A stretch of DNA of 28,718 nt from an uncultured archaeon (GCA_938074535.1 CALJER010000046.1:1-28718), one strand, 5' to 3'. Shown: positions 2,701-23,200, counted from the first letter of the stretch. Made by a program: numbers and translations. Notes: a model not told the origin generated them from the letters alone.

Positions 2701-2940
2701 TTAACCCATGCCCCTCAGCATCAGGAGGACGAACAGGAGGGCCAGCGCCAGGCCCAGGACCGCCATCACCCTGGCGATGGCCTCGCCGGTGCCGAAGGCT
2801 ATGGGGAAGGGACCTACCACCACCACCCCTCCCCCCTCCACCCTCCCCCTCTCCGCCATCCCCCACATCCCGAGGGTGAGGAGGAGGAGGCCCGCCACCA
2901 GGAGCAGGAAGCCAGCCAGCAGGAGCACCTCAGGCCTCAC
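2701..2940 (-). CDS. DUF131 / TIGR00304-type archaeal two-TM membrane protein
   Basis: Two hydrophobic helices flanking GGGVVVVGPFPIAFGT, the DUF131 motif. Confidence 0.85.
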   Translation of the reverse strand: MRPEVLLLAGFLLLVAGLLLLTLGMWGMAERGRVEGGGVVVVGPFPIAFGTGEAIARVMAVLGLALALLFVLLMLRGMG

Positions 2941-2959
2941 CTCTCTCCTTTCCCCAGGC

Positions 2960-2970
2960 AGTTTTTAACT
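2960..2970. promoter_or_regulatory. Shared divergent TATA region for the DUF131 gene and the ubiX operon
   Basis: GTTTTTAACT lies ~25-30 bp from ATG 2994 (+) and ~20-30 bp from GTG 2940 (-). Confidence 0.55.
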
Positions 2971-2993
2971 CCCTCCGCGCCAGAGAGGAAGGG

Positions 2994-3551
2994 ATGCACC
3001 TCATCGTGGCCCTCACTGGCTCCAGCGGGATCGTTTACGGAGTGCGCTTCCTGGAGGTCTGCCGGGAGCTGGGGGTGGAGACCGACCTCATCCTCTCGGA
3101 GGCGGGAAGGAAAATCCTGAAGGTGGAAGCGGAAAGGGAGCCGGAGGAGGTGGAAAGGCTGGCCACCAGGAGCTACGGGGAGGACGAGCTCACCTCTCCC
3201 CTCTCCAGCGGCTCCCATCCGGTGGACGGGATGGTGATCGTTCCCTGCAGCATGAAGACCCTGGCCTGCGTGGCGAACGGGGTGGCCGGCAACCTCATCA
3301 CCAGGGCGGCCGACGTCATGCTCAAGCAGGGGAGGCCCCTCGTGCTGGTGCCGCGCGAGACCCCCCTCAGCCTCATCCACCTGGAGAACCTGGTGAAGGC
3401 GAAGAGGGCCGGCGCGGTGGTCCTTCCCGCCTGCCCCGCCTTCTACCACGGACCCAGGAGCATAGGCGACCTGGTGGATTTCGTGGTGGGCAAGATCCTG
3501 GACGTGCTGGGGGTGGAGCACCGCCTCTACCGGAGGTGGGGGGGAGGATGA
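2994..3551 (+). CDS. ubiX: Flavin prenyltransferase (prFMN synthase)
   Basis: IVALTGSSGIVYG, SSGS, IVPCSMKTLA, LITRAADVMLKQGRPLVLVPRETP and PAFYH motifs. Confidence 0.97.
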   Translation: MHLIVALTGSSGIVYGVRFLEVCRELGVETDLILSEAGRKILKVEAEREPEEVERLATRSYGEDELTSPLSSGSHPVDGMVIVPCSMKTLACVANGVAGNLITRAADVMLKQGRPLVLVPRETPLSLIHLENLVKAKRAGAVVLPACPAFYHGPRSIGDLVDFVVGKILDVLGVEHRLYRRWGGG

Positions 3552-4798
3552 GCCTCAGCGGCTTCGTGGACAAGCTGGAGAGAAGGGGGCTGCTCCTGAA
3601 GGTGAAGCGGGAGGTGAGCCCCAGATACGAAATCACCTCCTGGCTGCTGAAGGCCGGGGAGAAGCCCGTGAAGTTCGAGAGGGTGAAGGGCTCCTCCTTT
3701 CCCGTGGTCTCCAACGTGTGCGCCTCCAGGGAGCTGGTGGCCCTGGCCCTGGGGGTCAGGCCCCAGAACCTCCTGCGCACCCTGCTGAGGGCCATAGAGC
3801 ACCCGAAGGAACCCGAGAGGGTGAAGGCCAGGGGATACAGGGAGCTTCCCCCGGACCTGGGAAGGCTCCCCATCCTCCTCCACTACCCCTTCGACGGGGG
3901 GAAGTACCTCACGGGAGGGGTGGTGGTGGCCAGGGACCCGGAGCTGGGCCTCAACCTGTCCTTCCACAGGATGATGGTGGTGGGAAGGGACAGGGTGGTG
4001 GTGAGGATCCTCCCCCGCCACTTCCACACCTTCCTGGAGAGGGGGCTGAGGGAGTTCGCCGTGTGCATAGGATGCGACGTGCACGTCCTCCTCTCCGCCG
4101 CCACCTCCCTGGAGCTCGGAAGGAGCGAGCTGGGGATGGCCGGCGCCCTGCGCAGGACGAGGGTGGTGGAGCTGGGAGGGCAGCTGGTGCCCGAGGCGGA
4201 GATGGTGATGCTCATGGAGATGACGGATGAGGAGAGGGAGGAGGGGCCCTTCCTGGACCTCACGGGGACCCCCGACCTGGTGAGAAAGCAGAGGGTGGCC
4301 AGGGTGAGGAGGCTCTTCGTGAGGGAGGGCGCCCTCTACCACGCCATCCTCCCGGGAGGGCCGGAGCACAGGGTCCTGATGGGCATGCCCAGGGAGCCCA
4401 CCATCTTCAGGGAGGTGAGCAGGGTGTGCGAGTGCAGGGACGTTTACCTCACGCCCGGAGGATGCTCCTGGCTGCACGCGGTGGTGAGCATAAGGAAGAA
4501 GGGACCGGAGGACGGGAAAAAGGCCGCAGAGGCGGCCTTCAGGGGGCATCCTTCCCTCAAGCACGTCTGGGTGGTGGACGAGGATGTGGACCCCAGGAAC
4601 CCGCAGGAGGTGGAGTGGGCCATGGCCACGCGCTTCCAGGGGGAGAGGGGAATGGTGGTGAGGAGGGAGAGGGGCTCCTCGCTGGATCCCTCCGCCGACC
4701 CCGAAACGGGGCTCACCACGAAGGTGGGCTTCGATCTCACCATCCCCTCCGACCGCCCGCGCTCCCTCTTCCTCCGCCCTCCTCCTCCGGGGAGGTGA
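3548..4798 (+). CDS. ubiD: UbiD-family prFMN decarboxylase, probably trans-anhydromevalonate 5-phosphate decarboxylase
   Basis: DGGKYLTGG, NLSFHRM, EGPFLDLTGT (the Asp variant typical of the archaeal AMPD clade), GGCSWLH, VVDEDVD...EVEWAMATR, GSSLDPS, TKVGFDLT. ATG 3548 overlaps the ubiX stop (ATGA). Confidence 0.93.
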   Translation: MSLSGFVDKLERRGLLLKVKREVSPRYEITSWLLKAGEKPVKFERVKGSSFPVVSNVCASRELVALALGVRPQNLLRTLLRAIEHPKEPERVKARGYRELPPDLGRLPILLHYPFDGGKYLTGGVVVARDPELGLNLSFHRMMVVGRDRVVVRILPRHFHTFLERGLREFAVCIGCDVHVLLSAATSLELGRSELGMAGALRRTRVVELGGQLVPEAEMVMLMEMTDEEREEGPFLDLTGTPDLVRKQRVARVRRLFVREGALYHAILPGGPEHRVLMGMPREPTIFREVSRVCECRDVYLTPGGCSWLHAVVSIRKKGPEDGKKAAEAAFRGHPSLKHVWVVDEDVDPRNPQEVEWAMATRFQGERGMVVRRERGSSLDPSADPETGLTTKVGFDLTIPSDRPRSLFLRPPPPGR

Positions 4799-4802
4799 GG
4801 GG

Positions 4803-5984
4803 ATGTACCTGAGCAGGGAGCAGGAGAGGATGCTGGAGGGGGAGGAGGGGGAGGTGGTGGAGAGGATGTTCCGCCTCCTCGTCCGCCTGGGGGACCTGTA
4901 CGGGGCGGACAGGATGATCCCCGTCTCCTCCTGCCAGGTTTCGGGAGTCTCCTACAAGTCGGTGGGGGATCCGGGGCTGGAGTTCCTGGAGGACCTGGCA
5001 GAGAAGGGGGCAAGGGTGAGGGTGAGGACCGCCCTGAACCCGGCGGGTCTGGATCTGGAGGAGTGGAGGGAGATGGGCTTCCCGGAGGACTTCGCGGCGA
5101 AGCAGCTCAGGATCCTGGAGGCCTTCAGGAAGCTGGGGGCGGAGCCCACCGTCACCTGCACCCCCTACCTGGCGGGGGTGGTCCCCTCGAGGGGAGAGCA
5201 CCTGGCCTGGTCTGAGTCGTCGGCCGTGGCCTTCTCGAACTCGGTGCTGGGGGCCAGGACGAACAGGGAGGGGGGACCCTCCGCCCTGGCCGCGGCGATC
5301 TGCGGGCTCACCCCCAGGTACGGCCTGCACCTGGAGGAGAACAGGAGGCCCACCGTCCTGGTGGAGGTGGAGGGGGAGCTGGAGGGGCCCTGGGACTTCG
5401 GCGCCCTGGGGTACTGGGCGGGCAGGGAGGTGGGGGGGGAGATACCGCACTTCAGGGGCATAAAGAAGGCGGGGACCGACGAGCTCAAGGCGCTGGGGGC
5501 CGCCATGGCCGCCTCGGGCGCGGTGGCCCTCTTCCACGTGGAGGGGATCACCCCCGAGGCCGACCCCGAGAAGACCAGAGGGCTGGAAAGGGTGAGGGCG
5601 GGGAGAGAAGAAATAAGGAGGTCCTACGAGCTCCTCACCACCGGGGAAGAGCCAGAATTGGTGGTGCTGGGATGCCCGCACGCCTCCCCGGAGGAGCTCT
5701 CGCGCGCGGCCTCCCTGCTGGAGAAAAGGGGGAAAAGGCCCGTGTGGATCTGCACCAGCAGGAGGGTCAAGGAGGAGGCCTCCCGCTCCGGGCTGCGGAG
5801 GAAGGTGGAGGAGGCGGGGGGAAGGCTGGTGGCCGACACCTGCGCCGTGGTCTCCCCCCTCGAAAGGCTGGGCTTCAAAACGGTGGGGGTGGACTCGGCC
5901 AAGGCCGCCCACTACCTGCCGGGCCTGTGCGGGGTCAAGGTGGTCTTCTCCTCCCCGGAGAAGCTGCTGGGGGGAAGGAAGTGA
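4803..5984 (+). CDS. Aconitase X catalytic subunit (DUF521), probably phosphomevalonate dehydratase large subunit
   Basis: MYLSREQERMLEGEEG, QVSGVSYK, LNPAG, TCTPYL, AWSESSAVAFSNSVLGARTNREGGPSALAAAICG, LFHVEGITPEA, LGCPH, DTCAVVSP, DSAKAAHY. Confidence 0.93.
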   Translation: MYLSREQERMLEGEEGEVVERMFRLLVRLGDLYGADRMIPVSSCQVSGVSYKSVGDPGLEFLEDLAEKGARVRVRTALNPAGLDLEEWREMGFPEDFAAKQLRILEAFRKLGAEPTVTCTPYLAGVVPSRGEHLAWSESSAVAFSNSVLGARTNREGGPSALAAAICGLTPRYGLHLEENRRPTVLVEVEGELEGPWDFGALGYWAGREVGGEIPHFRGIKKAGTDELKALGAAMAASGAVALFHVEGITPEADPEKTRGLERVRAGREEIRRSYELLTTGEEPELVVLGCPHASPEELSRAASLLEKRGKRPVWICTSRRVKEEASRSGLRRKVEEAGGRLVADTCAVVSPLERLGFKTVGVDSAKAAHYLPGLCGVKVVFSSPEKLLGGRK

Positions 5985-7868: not shown

Positions 7869-7890
7869 CGTCTTCCCTCCGTATGCCCCT

Positions 7891-7925
7891 CTATAAGTTT
7901 TACCGGCACCCGCAGGTTTTATACT
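7891..7925. promoter_or_regulatory. Back-to-back TATA boxes
   Basis: - strand AAAACTTATA at ~7892-7901, upstream of the acyl-CoA dehydrogenase; + strand TTTTATA at ~7917-7923, upstream of TTG 7941/7950. Confidence 0.55.
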
Positions 7926-7940
7926 CCCTCCCGAGGAAGC

Positions 7941-9767
7941 TTGAGGAATTTGAGAAAGATCCTTCCGGCGGCGCTGGTCGCGGTGCTCCTCCTGGCCGCG
8001 GTTCTCTCCCTCCGCCCCTGGGAGAAGAGGGAGGGGGAGGAGTTTCCCTACACCTTCACCCGCGGCTGGCTGAAGAAGGGCAACGTGTGGGTGTTCGGCC
8101 AGCCCCCGCTGGAGTACCTGCGGGAGGTGGGGGCCACGGGAACGACCTGGTCGGTGTACTTCGGCGGGGTCAACGAGGACGACAGGGGATACGTGAACAA
8201 ACTGCACCGCAGCGGCTTCGTGGTCTGCTCCGGCCCCCCCACCGTGCAGTCGAACACGACCGACAACAAGCGGCTGAAGGAGGAGGCCTGCGAGAGGGAC
8301 ATCTACGGCCGGCCCCTCAGGTTCCTGGGGACGGAGCAGTACGCCATGTGCGGCAACCATCCCCTCTGGAGGGAGTTCCTGATGAGGAGGTTCGAGGAGC
8401 ACGTGGAGGGAGGGGTGGACGCCATCCTGATCGACGAAATAGGGGACACGGGGGGATTCTGCGACCAGTGCATGGCCGTCTTCAACCTCTACCTGGCGGC
8501 GAAGTACACGCCCGAGCAGCTCCGCTCCCTCTTCGGGATAGAGAACCTCCTCTCCTTCAACTACAGGCTCTACCTGCTGGAGCACGGGGCGACCGACTAC
8601 TGGGGGGACCCCAACCAGCTGCTCCAGCTGGAGTACCTTAAGGCCAAGCGCCTGGCGAGAAGGGAGTTCATCGGGGAGCTGGTGCTCCACACCAAGCAAG
8701 TGGCCGGCAGGGAGGTGCTGATGGGCGGGAACCTCTACGGGCTGAATCCCGATCAGCTGATCTACCTGCCCTACCTGGACTTCGTGATCTTCGAGATGCC
8801 CATCACCTCACCCACCCGCTCCCTCACCCTCCCCCTGCCCGGCAAGCACCTCACCACCTACCTGCTGGGGGAGGCCGCGGCACCCGACAAGCCCCTCACG
8901 GGTTTCCCCGACGTGTTCGATCTGGCCGGGCTCTCCGAGGAGGAGTGGTGGCTGTGGAGGTGCTGGCTGGCGGAGGCGCGCTCCTGCGGCGCTTCCTTCC
9001 TCCTCCCCTACCGGGCCTACACCCACGGAGGGGGGGCCTACACCCTCCCGGCCGAGAAGATCTCTCCCTACACCCGCTTCTTCGCCGGGCACCCCCAGTA
9101 CTACGAGAACCTGGAAAGGGTGGCCGCGGTGGCGGTGCTTTACGACCTGCACTCCACCCTGGTCAACCGGTACACCTGGAGGGCCCACCTGGCCAGGGAG
9201 AGCTTCGAAAACGTGGGGCTGGCGCTGCAGGATGCCCACCTCCCCTTCGAGGTGGTGTACAGGGGGGACGGGGAGTTCGTGCAGAAGCCCCTGACGCTGG
9301 AGGAGCTGCGGAGGTACCGCGTGGTGGTGATCCCCAGGTACTACGACCTGGACGAGGAGGCGGAGAACCTGCTCTCCCTCTACTCCTCCCGGGGAGGAAA
9401 GGTCGTGAGGTGCGACGGGCTCTCCAGCGACAGCCTCCTCCTCCCCGCCCTGAGGGGCACGGGGGTGGACCTGGGGGTGGAGACCGACGCCCCCTCCGAC
9501 CTGGGCATGGTGCTCTACAGGAGGGGCGACTCCCTGCTCCTGCACCTGATCAACTACCGGTACGACAGGGGGGCGAGGGACTTCTCCGACCTCACCAACC
9601 TGACCTTCACCCTCACCGTCCCCGAGGGGGTGAGCCTGGAGGGGAAGACCCTGAGGCTGGTGAGCCCCGACGCCCCGGAGCAGGAGCTGGAGTTCAGCAT
9701 GGAGGGGGGCAGGGTGACCTTCACCGTCCCGAGCGTGCACTGCTACTCCGTGGTCTCCTTCGAGTGA
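7941..9767 (+). CDS. Secreted or membrane-anchored glycoside-hydrolase-like protein (barrel domain, GH42-type trimerisation/GATase-like domain, C-terminal beta domain)
   Basis: N-terminal RKILPAALVAVLLLAAVLSL helix; MCGNHPLWREFL, GVDAILIDE, FCDQC; later VAVLYD...LQDAHLPFEVV...LRRYRVVVIP...GGKVV; LLHLINY tail. The start is TTG 7941 or 7950. Family and substrate are not assignable by eye. Confidence 0.65.
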   Translation: MRNLRKILPAALVAVLLLAAVLSLRPWEKREGEEFPYTFTRGWLKKGNVWVFGQPPLEYLREVGATGTTWSVYFGGVNEDDRGYVNKLHRSGFVVCSGPPTVQSNTTDNKRLKEEACERDIYGRPLRFLGTEQYAMCGNHPLWREFLMRRFEEHVEGGVDAILIDEIGDTGGFCDQCMAVFNLYLAAKYTPEQLRSLFGIENLLSFNYRLYLLEHGATDYWGDPNQLLQLEYLKAKRLARREFIGELVLHTKQVAGREVLMGGNLYGLNPDQLIYLPYLDFVIFEMPITSPTRSLTLPLPGKHLTTYLLGEAAAPDKPLTGFPDVFDLAGLSEEEWWLWRCWLAEARSCGASFLLPYRAYTHGGGAYTLPAEKISPYTRFFAGHPQYYENLERVAAVAVLYDLHSTLVNRYTWRAHLARESFENVGLALQDAHLPFEVVYRGDGEFVQKPLTLEELRRYRVVVIPRYYDLDEEAENLLSLYSSRGGKVVRCDGLSSDSLLLPALRGTGVDLGVETDAPSDLGMVLYRRGDSLLLHLINYRYDRGARDFSDLTNLTFTLTVPEGVSLEGKTLRLVSPDAPEQELEFSMEGGRVTFTVPSVHCYSVVSFE

Positions 9768-9825
9768 TCCCCGGCGCTTCCCGCCCCACCGCTTCCGATA
9801 AAGGAAGGGAGGAGGAAGGAGGACG

Positions 9826-10467
9826 ATGGAGCTGGAGGAGTTCAGGCGCGAGATCGTGCGGGGGGGAAGGAGGATGGTGGAGAGGGGGCTGGCCCACGGG
9901 AGCGCGGGGAACCTGAGCCTCAGGATCCCGGGAGAGGAGCTGATAGTGATCTCCCCCAGCCACGTTCCGTACGAGCGCATGGAGCCCGAGCAAGTATCGG
10001 TGGTGGACCTGAAGGGGAACCTGCTGGAGGGGCTGACCCCCTCGACCGAGCTGCCCATGCACCTGGCCGTCTACCGGGCCAGGAAGGAGGTGGGTGCGGT
10101 GGTGCACGCCCACCCGGTCTGCGCCTGCGCCCTGGCCGCCGTGGGGCTGGGGATCCCTCCCTTCCTGGAGGAGGTGGTGGTGCTCTTCGGGGGGGAAGTG
10201 GAGGTGGCGGAGTACGCCCCTCCTGGGAGCGCGGAGCTCGCCGGAAACGTGGTGAGGGCCCTGGGCAGGAAGAACGCCGTCCTCCTCTCCAACCACGGAA
10301 CCCTGTGCTGCGGGCCGGATCTGGACCGGGCGCTGGAGACCTCGGAGGCCCTGGAGAGGACCTGCAGGAGCTACATCCTCTCCCTCCTGCTGGGCGGGCC
10401 CAGGTACCTGCCGGAAGAGGTGGTGAGGCTGCAGAGGGAGCTCTTCGAGGCGCTGGGAGGGCTCTAG
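9826..10467 (+). CDS. Class II aldolase/adducin family protein (L-fuculose-1-phosphate aldolase-like)
   Basis: GSAGNLSLR, ISPS, PSTELPMHLAVY, VVHAHP and LLSNHG metal-binding motifs. Confidence 0.92.
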   Translation: MELEEFRREIVRGGRRMVERGLAHGSAGNLSLRIPGEELIVISPSHVPYERMEPEQVSVVDLKGNLLEGLTPSTELPMHLAVYRARKEVGAVVHAHPVCACALAAVGLGIPPFLEEVVVLFGGEVEVAEYAPPGSAELAGNVVRALGRKNAVLLSNHGTLCCGPDLDRALETSEALERTCRSYILSLLLGGPRYLPEEVVRLQRELFEALGGL

Positions 10468-10883
10468 GCCCTGACCACCCCCAGCCTCGCCAGCAGGAAG
10501 GCCAGCACGAAGCCCAGCACCACCTCCGGGCCTCCCAGGAGGGGGAGCAGCAGGTCGGACCCGAAGGCCCATAGGAGGAGGTCGTGGAGAAAGTCCGTGA
10601 CGAAAGCCGTGCAGAGAACCACGGAGAGGGGGGGCCAGAGCCCCCAGAGCAGGAAGAAGCCCGCGAGCTTGAGGGCCCCGGCGAAGACCACGCCCCAAGT
10701 CCCCCAGTCGGAGAAGAGGCCGGCCCACTCCTCCGTGAGCTCCACGGCCGTTCCCCGGTAGACCACCATGTCCCAGGTGAAGAGCTCGACGAAAACCACG
10801 GAGAGGACGCCCAGGGCGAGGATGGCCCTCTCCACATCGCCCGACCCTGCCCACCTCTCCCGCCACCAGCCGGCCAACCCCAT
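10464..10883 (-). CDS. Hypothetical membrane protein (about 4 TM)
   Basis: Several hydrophobic stretches; fills the gap between flanking genes. The start may lie further downstream (GTG of VERAIL). Confidence 0.6.
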   Translation of the reverse strand: MGLAGWWRERWAGSGDVERAILALGVLSVVFVELFTWDMVVYRGTAVELTEEWAGLFSDWGTWGVVFAGALKLAGFFLLWGLWPPLSVVLCTAFVTDFLHDLLLWAFGSDLLLPLLGGPEVVLGFVLAFLLARLGVVRA

Positions 10884-10969
10884 GCCCTCACCCGAACCGC
10901 GGCACCGGTGGAGCTTTCCTTCCAGAGATGATTCTTATACCTCCCGGGAAAAAGAAAGGGGGGGAATCC

Positions 10970-11689
10970 TTGAGCGAAACAGCCGGCCCGCAGGAGAGAA
11001 AGCGGGGGGAAGTCAAACTGGGGGACGAGGAGTGGGTCCGGAACCAGCGGAACTTCCTGGAGAGGGTGGTGAGGGAGGGGGGGCATGACCCCCTCTCGGT
11101 CGCTGCCTCCGTGCTGAGATGGGGTCAGATGATGGCGGTGGTGCTCCTGGACACGGTGAAGGCGGTGGAAAAAGAGTTTGGGGAGAAGGGACAGGCCCTC
11201 TGCAAAAACGTTTCCTTCGAGCACGGAAGGAAGGTGGGGAGGGAAATCGGCGGGTACCTGCTCCCCCTCCTGCCAGAGAGGATCGACAGGAGCAACCTGA
11301 TCGAGACCTGGCTGAAGATGATCTCCTGGGTGAACAGGAACATCTGGGCCTCCCCGGACGAGATAAAGGTGGTGAACGAGGAGGAGGGCTGCTTCGACAT
11401 CCTCTGGTGTCCGCACCAGGACATCTACACCGCCAGGGACTGCCGGATACAGAGATGGATAGTCTCCGGCATCATGGCGGGGATAGGGGAATCCCTCTTC
11501 GAGGAGCTCGAAAGGAGGTCCTCCGGGGACCCCTCGGAGCTCTTCGAGATAAACCTGGAGGTCACCGACCTCATCCCCAGGGGTGCCAGGACCTGCCACT
11601 TCAGGATCTGGAAGAGGAAGAAGGGGGAGGAGAACGTCTGGGAGAAGCACTCTGAGTACCTCGAAAAAAGGGAAGTGGGCAAGACCTGA
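10970..11689 (+). CDS. Hypothetical protein, ATC-hydrolase/V4R-like fold
   Basis: VEKEFGEKG...FEHGRKVG helix pattern, ILWCP, DC, and C-terminal TDLIPRGARTCHFRI. TTG 10970 chosen because it lies downstream of CTTATA at ~10934-10939. Confidence 0.6.
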   Translation: MSETAGPQERKRGEVKLGDEEWVRNQRNFLERVVREGGHDPLSVAASVLRWGQMMAVVLLDTVKAVEKEFGEKGQALCKNVSFEHGRKVGREIGGYLLPLLPERIDRSNLIETWLKMISWVNRNIWASPDEIKVVNEEEGCFDILWCPHQDIYTARDCRIQRWIVSGIMAGIGESLFEELERRSSGDPSELFEINLEVTDLIPRGARTCHFRIWKRKKGEENVWEKHSEYLEKREVGKT

Positions 11690-11808
11690 GGACAGGCGGC
11701 GTATTATGGACCTCGTGAATTTTGTTTTTCATTCAACCACCAGAACGGGGCCCCTCCCTCTGGTCCAAGTGTATGCGGGGCTGTGGTAATACACCTGAGG
11801 ACAGGCGG
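11684..11808. mobile_element. MITE-like or IS-remnant insertion (~93 bp) with long target-site duplication
   Basis: Exact direct repeat ACCTGAGGACAGGCGG at 11684-11699 and 11793-11808. The enclosed DNA is AT-richer, starts (C)GTATTA and ends TAATAC(A). Confidence 0.55.
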
Positions 11809-11809
11809 A

Positions 11810-12760
11810 TCAACCCTTTGACCGGGATCCGGGGAGGGAGAAATACCCCCGGAAGACCCTCGCACCCCACCTCTCCATCTCCGACGCGATCCTCCTCAGG
11901 TGCTCCTCCCCGGGTGGAGGCAGGTCCCCCAGCGGGTACTCCCTGCCCAGCCTCCCGTACTTGGGGACTCCCAGCGGATGGTAGGCCAGGGGCTCGATCC
12001 CGAGCAGGCTGTCCACCTCCAGGCAGAACTCCACCGCGGCCCTCAGGTTCTCCTCCGAGTCGGTGAGTCCCGGGACGATGGGCACTCTCACCAGCACGGG
12101 GATCCCCATCCTGCCGATCCTCCTGAGGTTCTCCAGGATCAGCCCGTTGGGAGCGCCGGTGAGCTCCTCGTGCCTCCTCCCGTCCATGTGCTTGAGGTCG
12201 TAGAGCACGAGATCCGCGGACCGTACCACCCTGGAAAGGGCCTCCCACTCCCTGCACCCGGCGGTCTCCACCGCCGTATGGATCCCCCGCGCCCGGCACT
12301 CCCTCAGGAGCTCCGAGGCGAACTCCGGCTGGAGGGAGGGCTCCCCCCCGGAGAGCGTGACCCCCCCGCCGGACCTGCGGTAGAAGGGGAGGTCCCTCGC
12401 CGCCGCCTCCACCACTTCCCTCACGCCCAGCCGCTCCCCCACCACCTCCAGCGCGCCTGGGGCGCATGCCCTGACGCACTCCCCACAGCCGTCGCACGCC
12501 GACCTGTCGATCCCTATCTTTCCGTTCCTCCTCTCCAGCGCCCCCCTCGGGCACCTCGGGAGGCAGGAACCGCAGCCGCTGCACCTCTCCTCGAAATACA
12601 TCAGCTCGGGTGCCGCCCTCTGGGACTCGGGATTATCGCACCAGAGGCACCTGAGGGGACACCCCTTGAGGAAGACGGTGGTCCTGAGGCCCGGTCCATC
12701 GTGCGTGCAGCACCTCTGGAGGTCGAACACCAGACCCCTGATCTCCTCCCCGCCTGCCAT
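11810..12760 (-). CDS. Glycyl-radical enzyme activating enzyme (radical SAM with inserted 2x[4Fe-4S] ferredoxin domain)
   Basis: HDGPGLRTTVFLKGCPLRCLWCDNPESQ, CSGCGSCLPRCP, CDGCGECVRACA, GGGVTLSGGEP, HTAVETAG, LYDLKHMD. The real start is ATG 12760, not the track's 14164. Confidence 0.96.
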   Translation of the reverse strand: MAGGEEIRGLVFDLQRCCTHDGPGLRTTVFLKGCPLRCLWCDNPESQRAAPELMYFEERCSGCGSCLPRCPRGALERRNGKIGIDRSACDGCGECVRACAPGALEVVGERLGVREVVEAAARDLPFYRRSGGGVTLSGGEPSLQPEFASELLRECRARGIHTAVETAGCREWEALSRVVRSADLVLYDLKHMDGRRHEELTGAPNGLILENLRRIGRMGIPVLVRVPIVPGLTDSEENLRAAVEFCLEVDSLLGIEPLAYHPLGVPKYGRLGREYPLGDLPPPGEEHLRRIASEMERWGARVFRGYFSLPGSRSKG

Positions 12761-12783
12761 GGGACCGGGCACCTCCGCCGGCC

Positions 12784-15078
12784 CTAGAGGGAAAGGGCCA
12801 CCCTTTTGATGACCAGGTCCTGCAGAACCTCCGGCAGCTCCACGAAGCGGGCGCTGAACCCCGCCACCCTCACCAGCAGATCCCGGTACCTCTCCGGGTG
12901 CTCCTTGGCCTCGAGCAGGATCTCCGGGGAGAGGATGTTGACGTGGAGGTGCAGCCCCCCCATGTCGGTCAGATAGGTCCTGAAGAGGTCGGTGAGGGCC
13001 TCGACCGGCCCGTTCACGGTCAGGGCCAGCGAGGCCGTGTAGGCCCTGGTGTGGTCCAGTTTGGCCGCGGAGGCGAACACCGCCGTCGGACCCGCGCGGA
13101 GGGTGCCGGGGGAGGGGGAGATCCCGTCGGTGAGGGGCTCCCCTCCCCTCCTGCCGTCGGGGGTGGCCGCGGTGCCCAGGCCCAGGTTCACGTTGAAGAT
13201 CAGGGAGTGCAGGCCGGGCGTGAAGGGGCCCGGTTTCTCCGGGTTCCTGTGGCAGAAGTGCCTGTCCACCTCGTCGAAGAAGAGGTTCACCACCTCCGCC
13301 GCCAGGGAGTCCACGTAGGCGTCGTCGTTCCCCCACTTGGGCGCCTCCGCCAGCATGCGCCTCAGCTCCTCGTACCCCTCGAAGTCCCTGCCCAGAGCCT
13401 CCAGAAGCTCCCGCATGGAGATCCTTCCCTCCTCGAAGACCAGCTTCTTGATCGCCGCCAGGGAGTTGGCCACGTTGGCCAGCCCCACCCCGTGCATGCC
13501 GGTCCAGTTGTGCCTCCCCCCTCCCTCCAGGACGTCCTTCCCCCTCTCCATGCAGCCCTCCACGTGCAGGGAGGCGTAGGGCAGGCACATCGTCCCCCTG
13601 ATGGCGGCATCCATGAGCTCGCTCTCCTCCGCCATCGCCTTGACGCAGTGCTCCAGCTGCCTTCGGAAGGCCCCCATGACCTCCTCGAAGGTGGCGAAGC
13701 CCGCCGGGTTCCCCGTGGGCGGGCCTATCCGCCTGCCCGTGAACCTGTCCACCCCGTCGTTCAGGGCCAGCTCCAGGACCTTGGCCAGGTTGAGCCAGCC
13801 GCTGTGGTCCTTCCTGCTGTAGGTGGTGAAGTGCTGGCAGCCGTCCACGCTGTAGGTGCGGGCCTCCTTCAGGGGTATTCCCCACCTCAGGAGGGAGGGG
13901 ATGATGGCCTCGTCGCTGTTGAGCTGCGGCCTGCCCCCGCTCACCCTCATCACCTCCACCGCCCTCCTCAGCAGCTCCCTGGGGGTGCCCCGGTGGACCC
14001 TGAGGCTGACCTGGGGCTTGGGCATGCGCACCTCCTCCAGCGCCTGCAGGAAGAGGTACGTGAGCTCGTTGGTGGCGTCCCTCCCGCTCTCCGTCTGACC
14101 CCCCAGCGTGATGCCCGTCACGTGGGAGTCCAGGTCGAAGGGGGCGTACGTGATCTCGTTGCACTTGAGCAGGAGCTCCTCGACAAGCGCCAGCGCCCCC
14201 TGCCTGGTGAGCCTCCCCTCCTTCAGGTCCCTCAGGTAGTACGGGTAGAGGAGCTGGTCCAGCCTCCCGAAGGAGATGGAGTCTCCTCCCGACTCTATGT
14301 TGGCGATGAGGAAGGCGAACCAGGTGGACTGCAGGGCCTCGCGGAAGGTCCGGGCGGGCTCCCAGGGCACCAGGTCGCAGACCCCGGCTATCTCCTCCAG
14401 CTCCTTACCCCTCTCCCCTTCCGCCTCCTTCGCCTCCTCCCTGGCCTTGGCGGCGTACCTCGAGGAGAAGGTTTTCACGGCGTCGCAGACCAGGAGCGCC
14501 GCCTTATAGAAGAGCTGCCTCCCCAGGCCGCCCGGCTCCTCTGGGTCCACCCTCTCCAGCCGCTCCTCCGCCTCCCTCCTCGCACCGCTGAAGCCCCGCC
14601 CGAGCACCATCGGCAGGTTCACGAGGTAGCGGCCCCTCCTGCTCCCCGGGACCCCCATGTGCCAGTACCAGACGGAGGCCTCCCTCGCGGCGAGGATCCG
14701 CTCGGGGAGCAGGGCCCGGACCATGTCCTGGTAGTTCCTCCCCTCCCAGTAGGAGCTGAGCTCCCGCACCTCACGCTCGGTGTCCTCATCCGGCGCGAAC
14801 CCGGAGCGCACGTAGTTCTCGAACTCGTCCACCCCGAACTCAGGCCACATGGGAACCCCCCTGAGCGAGCTGGCCCAGTGGCCGACGAGGAGCTCCTCCT
14901 CCAGGATCCAGACGCTCATCCCCTCCAGCACGGCCTTCAGGACCTTCGCGGCCCGCAGGATGGGGGGCTCCCCCTCCGTCTTCCTGTAGGCCTCGGTGGC
15001 CAGCCGTGCTCTCTCGGTGCAGAGCCTGGGCTTGGCCTCCAGGTAGCGCTCCCTTAAACGCTCCAGCCTGGGCTCCAT
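12784..15078 (-). CDS. Glycyl radical enzyme (PFL2/dehydratase-like superfamily), substrate unknown
   Basis: ELLVG, SFGRLDQLLYPYY, LGGQT...DATNELT, YSVDGCQH (Cys codon 13837-13839), PKWGNDD, ATPDGR...PLTDGISP, glycyl loop LLVRVAGFSARF (Gly codon 12859-12861). 764 aa from ATG 15078. Confidence 0.95.
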   Translation of the reverse strand: MEPRLERLRERYLEAKPRLCTERARLATEAYRKTEGEPPILRAAKVLKAVLEGMSVWILEEELLVGHWASSLRGVPMWPEFGVDEFENYVRSGFAPDEDTEREVRELSSYWEGRNYQDMVRALLPERILAAREASVWYWHMGVPGSRRGRYLVNLPMVLGRGFSGARREAEERLERVDPEEPGGLGRQLFYKAALLVCDAVKTFSSRYAAKAREEAKEAEGERGKELEEIAGVCDLVPWEPARTFREALQSTWFAFLIANIESGGDSISFGRLDQLLYPYYLRDLKEGRLTRQGALALVEELLLKCNEITYAPFDLDSHVTGITLGGQTESGRDATNELTYLFLQALEEVRMPKPQVSLRVHRGTPRELLRRAVEVMRVSGGRPQLNSDEAIIPSLLRWGIPLKEARTYSVDGCQHFTTYSRKDHSGWLNLAKVLELALNDGVDRFTGRRIGPPTGNPAGFATFEEVMGAFRRQLEHCVKAMAEESELMDAAIRGTMCLPYASLHVEGCMERGKDVLEGGGRHNWTGMHGVGLANVANSLAAIKKLVFEEGRISMRELLEALGRDFEGYEELRRMLAEAPKWGNDDAYVDSLAAEVVNLFFDEVDRHFCHRNPEKPGPFTPGLHSLIFNVNLGLGTAATPDGRRGGEPLTDGISPSPGTLRAGPTAVFASAAKLDHTRAYTASLALTVNGPVEALTDLFRTYLTDMGGLHLHVNILSPEILLEAKEHPERYRDLLVRVAGFSARFVELPEVLQDLVIKRVALSL

Positions 15079-15181
15079 CCCCCTCCTTCCTTTGCCCCCC
15101 TTCCATAAATAGCCGGAGCAGGCCCCTCCGGCGGAAGCCGCGGGCGACGGAGTTAAACCCCGCCGCTCCCCTGCAGGGGAG

Positions 15182-15784
15182 ATGGAGGCCAAGAGGCTGG
15201 AGGCGGCGGTGGGCTCCTGCAGGCGCTGCCGCTTCGTGGACCAGCCCTTCCTCCTGGACCGGGTTTACTCCTGGCTGCCCAGGAAGGTGAGGGTGCTGGC
15301 CGTGGGGGAGTCCCCTCCACCGGGGAGGAAGGCGGGCTCCCTCTACCACCTCGAGGCCTTCGACAGGCTCAGGCTCTCCCTCAGCCTCATCCTGGGGGTG
15401 AGGATGGAGGAGGTGCTGGAGACCCTCAGGCGCCACGGCGTTTTCTTCACGGCGGCGGTGAAGTGCCGTCCACCCGACAGGAAGAGCATCGAGGGGATGA
15501 GGCGGAACTGCGTTTCCCTCCTCCGCGGGGAGCTGGAGGCCCTGCGCCCCCGGAGGGTGGTGGCCATGGGAAGGTTCGCCTCGGCCTCGGTGTGCGAGCT
15601 CCTGGGCCTGTGCCCGCCCGACGACCAGAGGACGCTCTCCTGGACCAGGGCGGGGGAGAGGGAGGTGTTCTTCACCCCCCACCCCAACCACCTCTTCAGG
15701 TTCAGGAGGGAGCTCTGTCCCCTGGTGAGGGAGGTCCTGCTCGGTGGCTCCGATCCCTTCCCACGAAGAGCAGGGGGAAGATGA
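15182..15784 (+). CDS. Uracil-DNA glycosylase superfamily protein (family 4/5-like, four Cys for [4Fe-4S])
   Basis: CRRC, VLAVGESP, FTAAVKCRPP, NC..LLRGEL..LRPRRVVAMGRFA, TPHP. Confidence 0.85.
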   Translation: MEAKRLEAAVGSCRRCRFVDQPFLLDRVYSWLPRKVRVLAVGESPPPGRKAGSLYHLEAFDRLRLSLSLILGVRMEEVLETLRRHGVFFTAAVKCRPPDRKSIEGMRRNCVSLLRGELEALRPRRVVAMGRFASASVCELLGLCPPDDQRTLSWTRAGEREVFFTPHPNHLFRFRRELCPLVREVLLGGSDPFPRRAGGR

Positions 15785-17256: not shown

Positions 17257-17283
17257 GCGAGAAACTATTTTTGGGGGAGCTGG

Positions 17284-20200
17284 ATGGGTAGACCTCTGAG
17301 CGAGCGAGCCAGGGCCTTTGGCTCTTTAGCGGTAGTGGTTTCAGTTCTTGCCTCCACCATCCTCCCCCCCGTTGGGGCCACGGAAGACAACACTCCCCCA
17401 CCGTTCGCCTCCCTGATCTCCCCTCCCGACAACGCCGTCCTCCAGGAAAACCGCCCCGAGTTCATATGGACAAAGGTCGAGGATCCCAGCGGGGTCACCT
17501 ACACCCTGGTCATCGACAACGACCCCAACTGCGAGACCCCATGGCTGACGAAACCCGACCTGACCGAGAACACCTACCAGCTCGCGGACAGCGAGGCTTT
17601 GCCGAGCGGAAGGTGGTACTGGCGCGTTCGGACGAAGGACGGGGCCGGAAACGAGGGGGAGTGGTCCGACATCTGGAGTTTTTACCTGGATTCGCTTCCG
17701 CCCTCGGCCAGCTCCTGGAAGATCACGAAGATCATTAGAGGGGCTGAGAACCTTTTCGACTTCGGGGATGGGGAGTACACGAACGACAACACCCCGTTCA
17801 TCTCCGTGATCCTGACCGACGACGCCGTGGGTGTTAAGGAGAACATGGAGCTGCTGCTTGACGGGAATCTCGTATCGTACACTTACCATCCGGAAAACGG
17901 CCAACTTTGGCATCAGGTCCCTCCAGAAAATTCGCTCGCCGAGGGCGAGCACGTCGTGGAGCTGAGGGTCTGGGATGACTTCGGCAACCATGCACTGATC
18001 ACGCGCTCTTTCAGGGTGGACCGCACCCCCCCGGCGCGACCTCCGCTGCGCTCACCCCCGGATGATTCTTCAACAAACGACAACACCCCAACTTTCGGCT
18101 GGTTTGAGGTGATGGACCACCAGGTGAGCTACACCCTGGAAATCGACAACGAGCCCGGTTTCACCGATCCCTTCACCAAGCCGAACCTGGTCTCCTGCGA
18201 ATACACCCTTGCGGATGAGGAGGGGCTACCGGACGGTCTCTACTACTGGCGCGTCCGGGTGAGGGATGGGGCCGGGAACGAGAACGTGTCGGAGATCTGG
18301 AGGCTCACCATCGACACGGTTCCCCCCAGCCCCCCCATCCCCCTCTCACCGGAGAACGGAAAGATCATCGGGGAGAGCACTCCCCTCTTCCGGTGGAGCA
18401 GCGTCCAGGGAGCCGTGAGGTACAGGCTCCAGATCGACAACGACCCCGACTTCCCTTCGCCCGTCTACGACAACCAGGACCTCACCGAAAACTTTGACAA
18501 CTTTGCGGAGCACCCCGAGAACTCGCTCGCGGACGGGATCTGGTACTGGAGGGCGGGTTCGGTGGATGAGGTGGGAAACGTGGGCTGGTCTCCCGGCTGC
18601 CTGTTCATGGTGGACACCGCACCTCCCCCCGAGGCACCCATACCGCTCACGCCGATGAACAGCATCATCACCAACGACAGCACCCCGACCTTCAGGTGGA
18701 GGGGGGTCAGCGATCCCTCGGGCGTGAGGTACCAGCTCCACTATGCCAGGGACAACGCGTTTTCCGTCGACCTGGTAATCGTCGAAAACCTCCAGGACAA
18801 CACCTACACGCCCGCTTCCCCCCTGGTGGACGGCACCTACTACTGGAGGGTCAGGGCGGTCGACAACTTCGGCCATCCCGGTCCGATTTCCGCCACCTGG
18901 AACTTCACGGTCGACACCCACGTCACCGCCCCCGTGCTCAGGAGACCGGAAAACCTTTCCCTGGTCATCAACCGGGTGCCTGAGTTCGATTGGTGGGACG
19001 TGGTGGATGGGGCCGGCATCCGATTCTACAGGCTTGAGGTGGACAACGACCCGGATTTCGGCTCTCCTGAAGTGAGGGAAGAACTGACCCGCTCCGAATA
19101 CGTTGCGGAAAACCTGGGTGAGGGCATCTGGTACTGGCGCGTCTGGGTGAAGGACAACACCTACAACGAGAACGAGAACCTGGCGGGCAACGAAAACGTC
19201 TCGGAGACCTGGCAGTTCGAGGTGATCAGGGATGAGTGGGTAAACGCGGCTACCCTGCTATGGCCTCCGGACGGCGCGTGGCTCAACGAGAACAGGATCA
19301 CCTTCGACTGGACGGACGTGAGAGACAGGTTTGAACCCGTGAAGTATCGCTTCCAGCTTTTGACAGAGCAAGATATCGTGGTGGACTCCTTGTGGAGTCT
19401 TACTGTTTCTGAGTACACGGTGCCAGATTTGCTTGACGGTACCTACTACTGGCGCGTTTGGACTCGAGACGGCATAGGCAACCTGAACTGCTCTGAGGTG
19501 AGGAGCTTCACCATAGACACGAGGCCACCCTCTTCTGCGGCCGCACCCTACCACCCGCCGTATTACTACGCGGTGATAGTAGGGATTTCAGGGGTTTCTC
19601 GAAATCTCTACGCCACGGGTTACGAGAGCAACTTATACACGAATGGAGAGAGGGTGACGGGCGCTCCGGACGACAGCTACGCCTTCGTAACGATAGACGA
19701 CGAAAGTGAGAATTACTGGATATGCGGAAAGGGCTACCCAACCTACAAGGGTGCGATATCCTCCGTGAAAATAAAAGTCGAATACCGGGTCAGCTCACCT
19801 TTTGATGATGACTATCTCATCCTGTACCACTCGCACGGTTCTTCCTCCCGCAAATGGAGGCCCGAAGACACGAGCGACACGACGGTGGAGCTCGACGTCA
19901 CTGGAGATAGACTTTGGACCTGGCAAGACATAGGGAACCTCAGAGTTTACTTGGGGTATGAGAGCAAGGGTCCGGCGGACAACAAGAGCGTCTACGTCGA
20001 CGCCCTCTACATAGAGGTGACCTGGGGCGTGAAACAGTACGGAGAGAGCGACGCCAGCGATTTTTACGAGGTCCTGCTGGACTACCCGAACTGGAGCGCG
20101 GAAAGGATCGTAAAGCTGGTGGGACCGGATGCCACGGTTCAGAACGTCACGAGCGCCCTCCGTTCCTTCGCCACGTCCACCACGGAGGTCGACTTCGGAG

Positions 20201-23200
20201 ACGTTTTCCTCTTCTACTTCTCTGGCGGGGGGAGTCCGGAAACCATAGAGCTCTACGACGGCAGCCTGAGCGGGAGTGAGCTGAAGAATCATCTCGACAA
20301 CATTAGGTGCAGCACCAAAATAGTCATTGTAGACGCTGACAACAGTGGTGGATTCATCAGCACTTTCAGCTACCCCTACTATGCGATCGCGACCTCCGCC
20401 CGAGAAAACGAGTCCGCGATGGAGAGCGCTCCCTTCCAGCACTCGGTTTTCACCCACTACCTGATGGAAGGGCTCTTTGCAACCTACTATCCGCACGTGG
20501 GGCCGGCCGACGCGGATAACAACTTCAGGGTAACGGTCAACGAAGCCTTCGAGTACGCAAAAAATAGGACCGTGGAATACACCGGAGGGCAGCAGAACCC
20601 GCAGAAAGGCGGCGGCAAGCTCAACTCCATCATCGCAGGCTATTTCCCCCCCAAGCCGTACGAGCCTGTGGGCCTGCTCAACGACCCGACACCCACTTTT
20701 TCATGGACTGCATGCTCGGATCCCGCCGGGCTTACGTATGTGCTGGAAATAGATAACGATCCCGATTTTTCATCCCCGCTGTTCCGCTACGAAAACATAC
20801 CCAACTCCGTCGTTTACCGCTACATGCATTGGGAGAGCGGCTATTGGTGTTTCAAATCATCTTCCATTCTTTACCCCAGCTATCAGCCGCGGGAGCTTAG
20901 CATCCCGGTCATCGTGTACACCATTCCGGACGAGTTGAGAGCGGACGGAACTTACCACTGGAGGGTGAGGGCCGTTGACCTCTCGGGCACCGGCAACGAA
21001 GGGCCGTGGTCCGAAACCGAAAGCTTCACGCTGGACACCGTCCCGCCCGGGACCCCCACCCTGCTCCTGCCAGGAAACGGGGAGAACCTCAACGACAACA
21101 CCCCCACCTTCGGGTGGTCGAGCGTTGAGGAGGCAGCGGGGTACGTGCTCGAGTACGCCACCGACAGCTCCTTCACCCAGAACGTGCACACCATCTTCAC
21201 GGCCGAAAACTCCTACACCCCCCCTGCGGGGTCCGCGCTGGCGGACAACGTGTGGTACTGGCGCGTGCGTGCGAGGGACTCCGCCTGGAACTGGGGTCCG
21301 TGGTCCAGCACTTGGAGCTTCAGGATAGACACGGTGATAGCCTCGCCCTCGCTGCTCCTGCCGAGCAACGACTCCATAGTCAACACCTCCTCCCCGCTCT
21401 TCAAGTGGACCAGCGTCAGCGATCCGCTTGGCGTTAGGTACAGGCTGCAAATAGACAACGACGCCGACTTCTCCTCGCCGGTCTACGACAGCGAGAACCT
21501 GCACGAAAACCAGCATGTGCCTCCCCCGCTGCCGGACGACACCTACTACTGGAGGGTCGCGGCGATCGACGGTGCGGGCAACGTAGGCTGGTCGGGGATC
21601 TGGGTAGTTACCATCGATACGACCGCTCCCCCACCCCCGGAGCTGCTCGAGCCGGAGAACGACTCCTACACGAGCGACAACACTCCCCGCTTCAGGTGGA
21701 CGGTGCCGCTCGATCCCTCGGGGGTAACGTACGAGTTCTGGCTCGACAACGATCCCGATTGCTCATCACCCTTTTACGCAATCTCAGGCCTGACCGAGAA
21801 CGCTTTAACCCTGCCGGACGAGAACTCACTGCCTGATAACTCCTACTACTGGCGTGTCAGGGCAAGAGACAGCTGGGGTCATGTCGGCGAGTGGTCTGCC
21901 GCTTACAAGTTCACCGTCGATACCAGGCCGCCCGTCGAGGCCCCGCTCCTCGTCTCGCCTCCCTCGGGCGAAAACACGCGTGATGGCAAGCCAACCTTCC
22001 GGTGGTCCATTGTGGACGATGCCGCGAAGTATGAGATTTGGATCGACAACGATCAGGACTTCTCCTCTCCGGTGATCGTGGAGAACACACCGGCACTCAG
22101 CTACACCCCGCAAACCCCGCTGCCCGACGGCACGTACTACTGGCGCGTCAGGCCCATCGACGCGGCGGGCAACATCGGTACAAGCTGGTCGGATACCTGG
22201 TGGCTGAGGGTGGACAGCATCATCACGGCGCCGGCGCTGAGATCGCCCGCCGAGGGAGCCTGTGAAAACGATAACCGCCCGACCTTCAGCTGGTCGGCCG
22301 TGACGGATCCCTCAGGCCCCATCACCTACCGCCTCCAGATTTCCCGCAATCCCGAGTTCACGGAGGTGGTCTACGACAACGCGAACATAACGGACAACGG
22401 CATCAGGATCGAAAACGAGCTTCCCGAGAACACCTACTACTGGCGGGTCCGAGCCCGCGACAGCCTTGGAAACGAGAACTGGTCCGCAGGCAGGAACCTG
22501 ACCATCGACGTGACGCCGCCCAGCTCAGGCGTCACCGCGATATCCCCCTACTGGAGGAAAACTGTTCCCTTCACCATAGAGGCGGAGAATACTCCTGACC
22601 TCAGCGGGATCGAAAGCGTCGAGCTCTGGTACCGCTACTCCGATGACAACTGGAGCTGGGGCCCCTGGACCCTATTCGAGAACCCCAAGACGGAACCCCC
22701 CTGGTCCTGGGAGTTCACGGCCCCCAGCGGGGATGGATTTTATGAATTTTACTCTATAGCCAGGGACCGCGCTGGGAACACTGAACCTGTCCCGGGAGAA
22801 GCCGACTCAAGCTGTGGCGTGGACACCACCGCACCCGCCGCTCCCGTGCTGGTTTCCCCGGAGGGCGGAAGCCACCAGACCGATAACACGCCTCGCTTCG
22901 ATTGGCAACCCGTTCCCGACCTGAGCGGCGTCACCTACATCCTCTGGATCGACAACAGAGCTGACTTCAGCACCAGGCGGGAGTATGCAGGTCTGCTTTA
23001 CTCTGAGTTCACGATCCCGGACGGGGAAAACCTCCCAGAGAACCGCTACTACTGGCGCGTGCGTGCGGTCGATCAGGCTGGCAACGAGGGCGAATGGTCC
23101 GAAACGCGAGAGCTCGTCATCGACGTCACACCGCCCGACGAACCAGTTCTGCGAGCTCCAGAAAACGACTCGCCCTTCGAAAATCTCACCATAACCTTCC

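Follow-up and report, generated by a model that had tools for sequence, protein, structure and literature searches.

The window considered here is a stretch of 28,718 nucleotides that makes up a whole contig (CALJER010000046.1) in the assembly of an uncultured archaeon (GCA_938074535.1). It harbours a gene for an oxygen-sensitive glycyl radical enzyme (GRE), designated P0001, which occupies positions 12784-15078 on the minus strand, the strand of all residues of this protein located below. The gene encodes 764 residues, begins with the ATG at 15078 and is preceded directly, on its 5′ side, by GGAAGGAGGGGG. Because the window is GC-rich (0.57-0.70), it contains many spurious open reading frames (ORFs). 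The product of P0001 matches over its full length the Pfam families PFL-like (E 2.3e-183) and Gly_radical (E 7e-19), and the locus encodes a member of the GRE superfamily belonging to the PFL-like division (IPR004184 / PF02901 + PF01228).

The Gly loop is intact: residues 737-759 (12802-12870) match the fingerprint RVxG[FWY]x6-8[FL]x4Qx2[IV]x2R published for GREs (PMC13450708), and Gly740 (12859-12861) lies within the stretch RVAGF. The Cys loop, residues 412-425 DGCQHFTTYSRKDH (13804-13845), includes Cys414 (13837-13839) within SVDGCQHFT, and this column is Cys in all 128 aligned sequences. The residue before it is Gly413, so that there is a single Cys and the adjacent pair of the PFL/TdcE type is absent; two Cys are described only for PFL and TdcE (PMC13450708). 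A preliminary description of this stretch had reported the intact Gly loop, the single active-site Cys and, directly downstream, a dedicated activase with a ferredoxin insert. All three were recovered, and its coordinates and residue numbers proved exact.

An AlphaFold 2 model of the GRE, built from the 128-row alignment, has a pLDDT of 94.3 and a pTM of 0.94. It superposes on the solved PFL2-type eliminases and isomerases among the matches listed with TM-scores of 0.91-0.96 (0.94-0.96 for the closest) at 29-36% identity, in agreement with the 10-stranded barrel of GREs, in which the catalytic Cys sits on a finger loop. The gene is under purifying selection, with a dN/dS of 0.14 relative to the nearest locus, L015.

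The activating enzyme is encoded at 11810-12760 on the minus strand and starts 23 nucleotides past the stop of the GRE gene. This radical S-adenosylmethionine (SAM) protein of 316 residues scores 343 bits against TIGR02494 (cut-off 174) and carries a CX3CX2C motif at residue 34. Its two-cluster ferredoxin insert contains CX2CX2CX3C motifs at residues 60 and 89, and the Fer4 matches of Pfam span residues 56-109. An insert of this kind is usual in the activases of GREs other than PFL and is no special feature. The best equivalog is the HypD activase, with 322 bits. By tblastn this is the only GRE activase in the archaeal genome, and it is predicted to be the cognate radical SAM partner of the GRE.

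A changed catalytic set

Residue mapping onto GD (glycerol dehydratase, 1r8w), HypD (6vxc) and PFL2 was carried out by sequence alignment. The CQH of the Cys loop aligns over the CVE of GD. His416 (13831-13833), at +2 from Cys414, falls on the Glu of 1r8w, 5i2a, 6vxc, 9rco and 7vua, which corresponds to Glu435 in GD and Glu436 in HypD, and the loop lacks the CXE motif of the 1,2-eliminases and isomerases (GD, PD, CutC, HypD, IslA, HpsG, HplG, YbiW and PflD). Arg147 and Arg150 (14629-14640) are invariant in the clade described below; Arg150 stands at the position of GD His164 and HypD His160, which is His in 73% of the other homologues and Arg throughout the clade. Asp266 (14281-14283), likewise clade-invariant, coincides with HypD Asp278 and GD His281, in a column that is Asp in 1% of non-clade homologues. 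His425 (13804-13806), the last residue of the Cys loop, takes the position of GD Asp447, the clade-specific and invariant His624 (13207-13209) that of GD Tyr640, and Val320 that of GD Phe333 and HypD Ser334. Relative to 1r8w the Cys loop is shorter by three residues and the cap loop by six, the latter including the stretch with GD Tyr339. We take Asp447, Tyr640 and Tyr339 of GD to be involved in substrate binding. Glu435 and His164 of GD are named as catalytic or substrate-binding residues in section 5.6.1 of PMC13450708, and His160, Asp278 and Glu436 of HypD in PMC7077986.

Altogether, 39 positions do not vary within the clade and have the same residue in no more than 5% of 115 GREs outside it; among them are R147, R150, F256, D266, D412, Q415, H416, K423, D424, H425, H529 and H624. 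A signature of 14 positions is exclusive to the clade among 264 sequences. In the alignments the Glu-His acid/base pair has thus become His-Arg, and the pocket gains two Arg, three His and two Asp, which amounts to a coordinated replacement of the catalytic set. As the change from Glu-His to His-Arg removes an acid group and adds positive charge, an anionic ligand is proposed, and the pocket may be adapted to a small polar ligand of anionic or zwitterionic character. Arg150 was also considered as a carboxylate binder corresponding to Arg226 of IAD; the idea was dropped, since IAD Arg226 stacks on the indole ring (PMC13232127).

The preliminary description had set this loop against the known GRE classes and concluded that a His in place of the Glu, together with an Asp two residues before the Cys, matched none of them. 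Its picture of the eliminases holds: six C-O eliminases, CutC, the C-S lyases and three isomerases all keep CXE (PMC13450708), and HPAD and IAD use the Glu (PMC13450708, PMC13232127). The picture is incomplete for the decarboxylases, however, since the arylacetate decarboxylase AAD (7e7l) has Leu at +2 and His at +3 and the phenylacetate decarboxylase PAD has Gln484 at +2 (PMC13450708, section 5.4). Judging from the alignments, no characterised GRE that was compared carries CQH, whereas the Asp at -2 recurs in PFL2 (2f3o). A literature search found no paper on a CXH-type GRE; with subscription journals outside its coverage, this is weak evidence.

Comparison with whole-protein models gives a concordant result. 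The NCBIfam equivalogs HpsG (480 bits, cut-off 1000), HypD (479, cut-off 1100) and CutC (434, cut-off 1050) all score below their cut-offs, as do the decarboxylases IAD (363, cut-off 1100) and HPAD (282, cut-off 1150). TIGR01774, which describes the PFL2/glycerol dehydratase subfamily, gives 631.5 bits against a cut-off of 678.2, and TIGR01255 (PFL) 121.5 against 994. The solved GREs among the matches listed are 23-36% identical to the protein. The best of them are GD 1r8w (E 2.7e-147), propanediol dehydratase, CutC and Archaeoglobus PFL2; AAD 7e7l follows with E 1.1e-98, the X-succinate synthases (XSS) 9o8u and 4pkf with 1.7e-89 and 2.6e-83, and HPAD with 1.7e-50. The enzyme is predicted not to be isofunctional with a known one, and the clustering with a characterised GRE that had been raised as a possible objection did not appear.

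A rare and isolated clade

Among 5.8 billion clustered proteins the GRE belongs to a clade of 13 clusters with 57-100% identity, of which 12 lie beyond the query at 57-90%; after the clade, identity falls to 48% or less. A HMMER search over 1.84 billion representatives at 50% identity recovered one clade representative, and the next match stood at 42%. An Atlas search with the GRE returned generic PFL-like clusters only. The motifs DGCQHFTTYxRKDH and RVAGFSARFV are present in all 13 clade clusters, whereas the next matches mostly carry GCVE. DGCQHFTTYxRKDH is also found in each of 18 further loci (12 of 12 from metagenomes and 6 of 6 from genomes), and GCQH is accordingly not a private mutation of the archaeal protein, the second objection foreseen in the preliminary description.

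Scanning species genomes with a single protein as query yielded no clade member; with the clade alignment, in a scan that covered 185,579 species genomes, six were found. These comprise two Dehalococcoidales, one member each of Dehalococcoidia, Chloroflexota and Desulfobacterales, and a bin labelled Saccharibacteria. With six members in 185,579 species genomes the clade is therefore rare. It is mainly bacterial and mostly found in Dehalococcoidia, and the archaeal copy is an inserted cassette.

In a FastTree phylogeny of 264 homologues, rebuilt after removal of the P0021 row only, the clade has a support of 1.0 and stands on a long stem of 0.44. P0043 and P0124 are closest to it, followed by P0123 and P0126; the Cys loops of these four are GCSI, GCST, GCVE and ACSH. 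None of 36 scanned neighbours reaches an NCBIfam equivalog cut-off, the closest being P0021 with 1086 bits to HypD (cut-off 1100), and the clade therefore lies within an unstudied radiation of GREs. A genome scan with the sister sequence P0124 found only relatives at 40% identity or less. The clade is best read as a new GRE subfamily with a changed catalytic set.

The first tree had placed the clade as sister to HypD, beside P0021. This placement was dropped, as P0021, a metagenome protein of 785 residues, is chimeric, either by an assembly join or by recent recombination of two GRE genes. Its residues 1-613 are HypD-like without gaps (918 bits to 6vxc), whereas the last 173 residues are 99% identical to P0014, from a metagenome-assembled genome of Desulfobacterales, against 33% for the N-terminal part.

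A cassette inserted in an archaeal genome

The source genome is archaeal, as the preliminary description had held, because the archaeal Rfam model gives 1353.8 bits for its small-subunit (SSU) rRNA and the bacterial model 1016.4, and because the contig is syntenic with genomes of the same genus, the flanking genes showing 75-88% DNA identity to them. The assembly amounts to 1.2 Mb in 53 contigs and is 93.6% complete. Its SSU rRNA match (G000:C3:23171-25526, L013) spans 2356 nucleotides for 1478 model positions, and the 16S gene there is probably interrupted by at least one large insertion or intron.

The GRE and activase genes form, together with a third gene, a cassette of 4.24 kb (10905-15142) that was delimited by blastn as an indel. 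Two genomes of the same genus, G003 and G002, are without window positions 10905-15142 and 10467-15196, respectively, with sequence kept on both sides (blastn against L109 and L110), and the class II aldolase and UDG/DtxR genes lie 1.3-1.7 kb apart there as opposed to 5.9 kb in the window. The insert also occurs, between the same flanks, in the metagenome loci L015 and L024, and the third gene is present in L025 too. In the archaeal genome the GRE, the GRE activase and the third gene each have a single copy, all in the cassette. The GRE was not found in any of the four same-genus genomes searched (88-95% complete), nor in one genome of the same family, and 4 of 35 genomes of the same order contain distant GREs only (33-39% identity). 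The GRE system resides on an insert held by one archaeal lineage and missing from close relatives. The GC content of the cassette is 0.663 and that of the flanks 0.666; no direct repeats or other marks of mobile elements of 8 nucleotides or more were found at its ends.

The third gene (10928-11689, plus strand) lies inside the indel, is convergent with the activase gene and comprises an ORF of 253 residues that is V4R- or ATC_hydrolase-like. Its homologues measure about 200-225 residues and many contain PF14196, a family that matches the protein of the cassette itself weakly (E 0.002) and the homologues more strongly. An Atlas feature search returned ATC_hydrolase clusters and, more weakly, V4R clusters. 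Some sources label the homologues 'predicted hydrocarbon binding protein', a name assigned automatically. The V4R-like protein is taken here as a putative small-molecule-binding partner. Small ORFs at 11125-11703 overlap this gene on the opposite strand and match no family.

In agreement with the preliminary description, a Pfam scan of neighbouring ORFs revealed neither a small subunit for the GRE nor any family of microcompartment shell proteins. No ORF in the cassette or its flanks encodes a small Fe-S subunit of the XSS type (beta, gamma or, in MASS, delta), and the cassette brings along no genes for a microcompartment, an aldehyde dehydrogenase or an alcohol dehydrogenase. The sole family III CoA-transferase of the archaeal genome lies on a different contig.

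The neighbours in the window (class II aldolase, acyl-CoA dehydrogenase, UDG and DtxR) were considered as clues to function and set aside, as they are also adjacent in relatives without the cassette. AcnX, UbiD, UbiX, the aldolase and the acyl-CoA dehydrogenase pre-exist in these relatives, and the other genes of the window are therefore uninformative on the function of the GRE. A membrane protein at 10467-10883 was rejected as a homologue of the DUF5658 protein that precedes bacterial GREs (BLASTP E 17, no Pfam match).

Several other features of the window deserve mention. Genes for a UbiX-type flavoprotein, a UbiD-family decarboxylase and aconitase X stand in a row at 2880-5984 on the plus strand; such a trio would supply the phosphomevalonate dehydratase and anhydromevalonate-phosphate decarboxylase that characterise the mevalonate pathway of archaeal type. 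A second indel, of 1.9 kb (7869-9786), between the acyl-CoA dehydrogenase and the aldolase, is missing from G002, L015 and L024; of five reading frames or ORFs examined there, none matched a Pfam family. At 17257-28716 on the plus strand an ORF of at least 3820 residues runs off the end of the contig. It shows many matches to Big_13, Ig_Rha78A_N and DUF4962 and probably encodes a giant surface protein; the GC content of this region (0.55-0.63) is below that of the rest of the window.

As to occurrence in environmental data, the hot-spring runs X2 and X3 contain contigs approximately 90% identical to the cassette (10928-15077), at word depths of about 750-900 and 3000. The best-matching data set for the window itself is labelled marine metagenome. 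No RNA data set is listed for the stretch, and a run bearing a metatranscriptomic label, available as contigs, probably derives from DNA.

Genomic context in bacteria

In the Chloroflexota lineage, whose GREs are 76-100% identical to one another, a convergent pair of family III CoA-transferase genes lies next to the GRE gene (L017-L020, L022, L023, L026, L111-L113 and L116; in the short loci L017, L019 and L112 one of the two is visible). Farther along these loci are genes for acyl carrier protein, PlsX, and 2-oxoacid:ferredoxin oxidoreductase or proteins resembling benzoyl-CoA reductase and 2-hydroxyacyl-CoA dehydratase, the last in L022, L023 and L116. A separate lineage, L114, has a convergent neighbour of the acetyl-CoA hydrolase/transferase family, an unrelated kind of CoA-transferase. 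The neighbours are a sulfatase in L021, and an SDR and a DUF1329 gene in the Desulfobacterales locus L115. A CoA-transferase thus adjoins the GRE in two of five deep lineages, which hints at a carboxylic acid as substrate or product, and such an acid is probably linked to the CoA-transferases in bacteria. The neighbouring CoA-transferases score far below every equivalog cut-off.

All five bacterial genomes searched encode one to three activases elsewhere, at 37-47% identity to the archaeal activase, and the best of these adjoin other GRE paralogues. L020 and L113 have a radical SAM gene in the vicinity of the GRE; it was considered as the activase and rejected, as NCBIfam does not place it among GRE activases. 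An ORF of 101 residues upstream of the GRE (L018-L020) was examined as an Fe-S small subunit and discarded, since it contains no Cys at all. The 101-residue protein is found in Dehalococcoidales at L018:680-985, L019:1866-2171, L020:4680-4985 and L113:9374-9679, has an internal two-fold repeat and is preceded by a DUF5658 membrane protein; neither has a counterpart in the archaeal cassette. In a Dehalococcoidales genome the GRE ORF at L111:2948-4972 has 674 residues, compared with about 773 in relatives, and may be frameshifted or truncated.

Possible reactions

The reading that we favour, with a probability of roughly 0.45 for the statement as a whole, is that of a new GRE subfamily whose substrate is small and anionic and most likely bears a carboxylate, and whose reaction is of the lyase or eliminase type, with His416 as acid/base. 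The activase would cleave SAM and generate the radical on Gly740, from which it would pass to Cys414. The resulting thiyl radical would attack a small polar anionic substrate, most likely with a carboxylate, held by Arg147, Arg150, Arg422 and Lys423 with Asp266 and Asp412 nearby. His416, together with His425 and His624, would move protons, and the outcome would be radical bond cleavage of a lyase or eliminase type unlike all those characterised. The V4R-like protein may be the ligand-binding component of the GRE system. The suggestion of the preliminary description that substrate and reaction may be undescribed gains support from these data, and we infer new chemistry.

A number of points weigh against this interpretation. 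The mapping of the active site derives from alignments of primary structure only. Forty-nine of the 251 neighbouring GRE representatives are without Glu at +2, as opposed to 202 that have it, and six of them have His; since non-Glu loops are frequent in unstudied GREs, the motif alone is no proof of a new reaction. The adjacency of CoA-transferases is convergent, not co-directional, is confined to one lineage plus L114 and is absent from L021, L115 and the archaeal cassette. No bacterial locus has an adjacent activase. Finally, His416 could equally be the proton donor in a decarboxylase.

The favoured reading can be extended to a broader proposal, which we regard as doubtful: an Arg-backed Cys-His set would replace the His-backed Cys-Glu one in a new reaction class, outside the seven recognised, that cleaves an anion bearing a carboxylate, sulfonate or phosph(on)ate. 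On that view the cassette would provide the first PFL-like GRE system of an archaeon to which a function can be assigned, and its three genes, the ligand-binding partner included, would have been exchanged as one self-contained unit between archaea and bacteria of the Dehalococcoidia type.

A decarboxylase of the Kolbe type, or one relying on hydrogen atom transfer, is the alternative that survives best, although we consider it unlikely. The carboxylate would lie against Cys414, as in HPAD and IAD, and His416 would reprotonate the thiolate; the substrate would be a dicarboxylic or hydroxy acid, converted into a monocarboxylate that is then passed to the CoA-transferases. In characterised enzymes of this group the carboxylate does lie at the Cys, and the residue at +2 has to donate a proton (PMC13450708, section 5.4; PMC13232127). 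AAD and PAD already dispense with Glu at that position, and both the cationic pocket and the CoA-transferase neighbours would suit such a reaction. The scores, however, lie nearer to the eliminases, whether by NCBIfam (480 bits for the HpsG/HypD level versus 363 for IAD and 282 for HPAD) or by the E-values against solved structures, where GD precedes AAD and HPAD by many orders of magnitude. Moreover, the decarboxylase pocket described for IAD is hydrophobic around the aryl group (PMC13232127), whereas the one predicted here is polar, and the small subunit is absent.

An ordinary eliminase of the diol or glycerol dehydratase type, in which the substrate hydroxyl is deprotonated by His as base instead of Glu, seems less probable still. 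It draws on the fact that glycerol and propanediol dehydratases are the best solved matches (E 2.7e-147, TM 0.94-0.95, 33-36% identity). Nonetheless, the partner acid His164 is an Arg here and Asp447 and Tyr640 are both His, the cap loop has lost six residues including the stretch with Tyr339, the cassette is devoid of microcompartment, aldehyde dehydrogenase and alcohol dehydrogenase genes, and the TIGR01774 score stays under its cut-off.

Very unlikely, in our judgement, is a fumarate-adding, XSS-like enzyme that activates a hydrocarbon and delivers a succinate product to a CoA-transferase pair resembling BbsEF. The family III pairs beside the GRE, the benzoyl-CoA reductase-like genes of L022, L023 and L116 and the 'hydrocarbon binding' label of third-gene homologues are in keeping with it, as is the proposal that Archaeoglobus PFL2, which is without small subunits, is an alkylsuccinate synthase (PMC13450708, section 7). 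Yet the XSS are the most distant of the PFL2-type matches (27-29% identity), genes for beta, gamma and delta subunits were not found, the pocket is polar and charged instead of hydrophobic, the CoA-transferases lie far under the equivalog cut-offs and the label is automatic. That the gene is a decaying or non-catalytic relic kept by chance after transfer is scarcely credible: its patchiness in the genus (not found in four of four genomes searched) and the bacterial members devoid of an adjacent activase are outweighed by intact ORFs, a dN/dS of 0.14, the invariance of Gly, Cys and 39 clade-specific residues, a retained dedicated activase and a high-confidence model. The remaining probability belongs to chemistry not yet thought of.

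Implications

GREs catalyse anaerobic reactions that are chemically demanding, and so far a new pathway has come to light with every clade to which a function was assigned. Archaeal members are the clearest gap named in a 2026 review, section 7 of which describes the PFL-like GREs of archaea as all lacking an assigned function (PMC13450708). The locus is a compact and apparently complete test case, comprising an enzyme, its own activase and one accessory gene in an archaeon of high GC content whose relatives reach great depth in hot-spring runs. The coordinated residue changes lead to direct mutational hypotheses concerning His416, Arg150 and Asp266. Should the reaction be new, the GRE family would gain a His-for-Glu catalytic solution, and the subsurface Dehalococcoidia, in which the clade is commonest, a further metabolic trait. 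Interest is tempered by the approximately one fifth of neighbouring GRE representatives that also do without the Glu.

Comparison with known systems

The B12-independent GD of Clostridium butyricum (1r8w) and the 1,2-propanediol dehydratases 5i2a and 9rco share with the archaeal GRE the same full-length fold (root-mean-square deviation 1.9-2.6), the Gly loop and the single Cys, and their activases too possess a ferredoxin insert. They differ in the catalytic set, where, in GD numbering, CVE has given way to CQH, His164 to Arg150, His281 to Asp266, Asp447 to His425 and Tyr640 to His624, and in the microcompartment context, which is absent here.

The trans-4-hydroxy-L-proline dehydratase HypD (6vxc) offers a parallel for one of the altered residues: its essential Asp278, which is not conserved in other eliminases (PMC7077986), aligns with Asp266. 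At the same time, His160 of HypD is replaced by Arg, Glu436 by His and Ser334 by Val320.

PFL2 of Archaeoglobus fulgidus (2f3o) is the only structurally studied archaeal PFL-like GRE. It too is without small subunits, matches with E 4e-133, a TM-score of 0.94 and 35% identity, and has an Asp two residues before the Cys (TDGCVE); unlike the enzyme described here, it keeps GCVE and the His at the position of GD His164. Its function is disputed, a role as alkylsuccinate synthase having been proposed (PMC13450708, section 7).

Among the decarboxylases, AAD resembles the archaeal enzyme in that its loop is not CXE either, and the same applies to PAD, for which the comparison comes from PMC13450708 and not from an alignment made here. 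The pocket of IAD is hydrophobic around the aryl group (PMC13232127), as opposed to the polar signature residues of the clade. The C-S lyases IslA, IseG and HpsG, unlike the GRE of the cassette, keep CXE; they hold the anionic group of the substrate with two Arg and a Gln (PMC13450708, section 5.6.3) and offer, by analogy, a precedent for Arg-based anion binding within the GRE fold.

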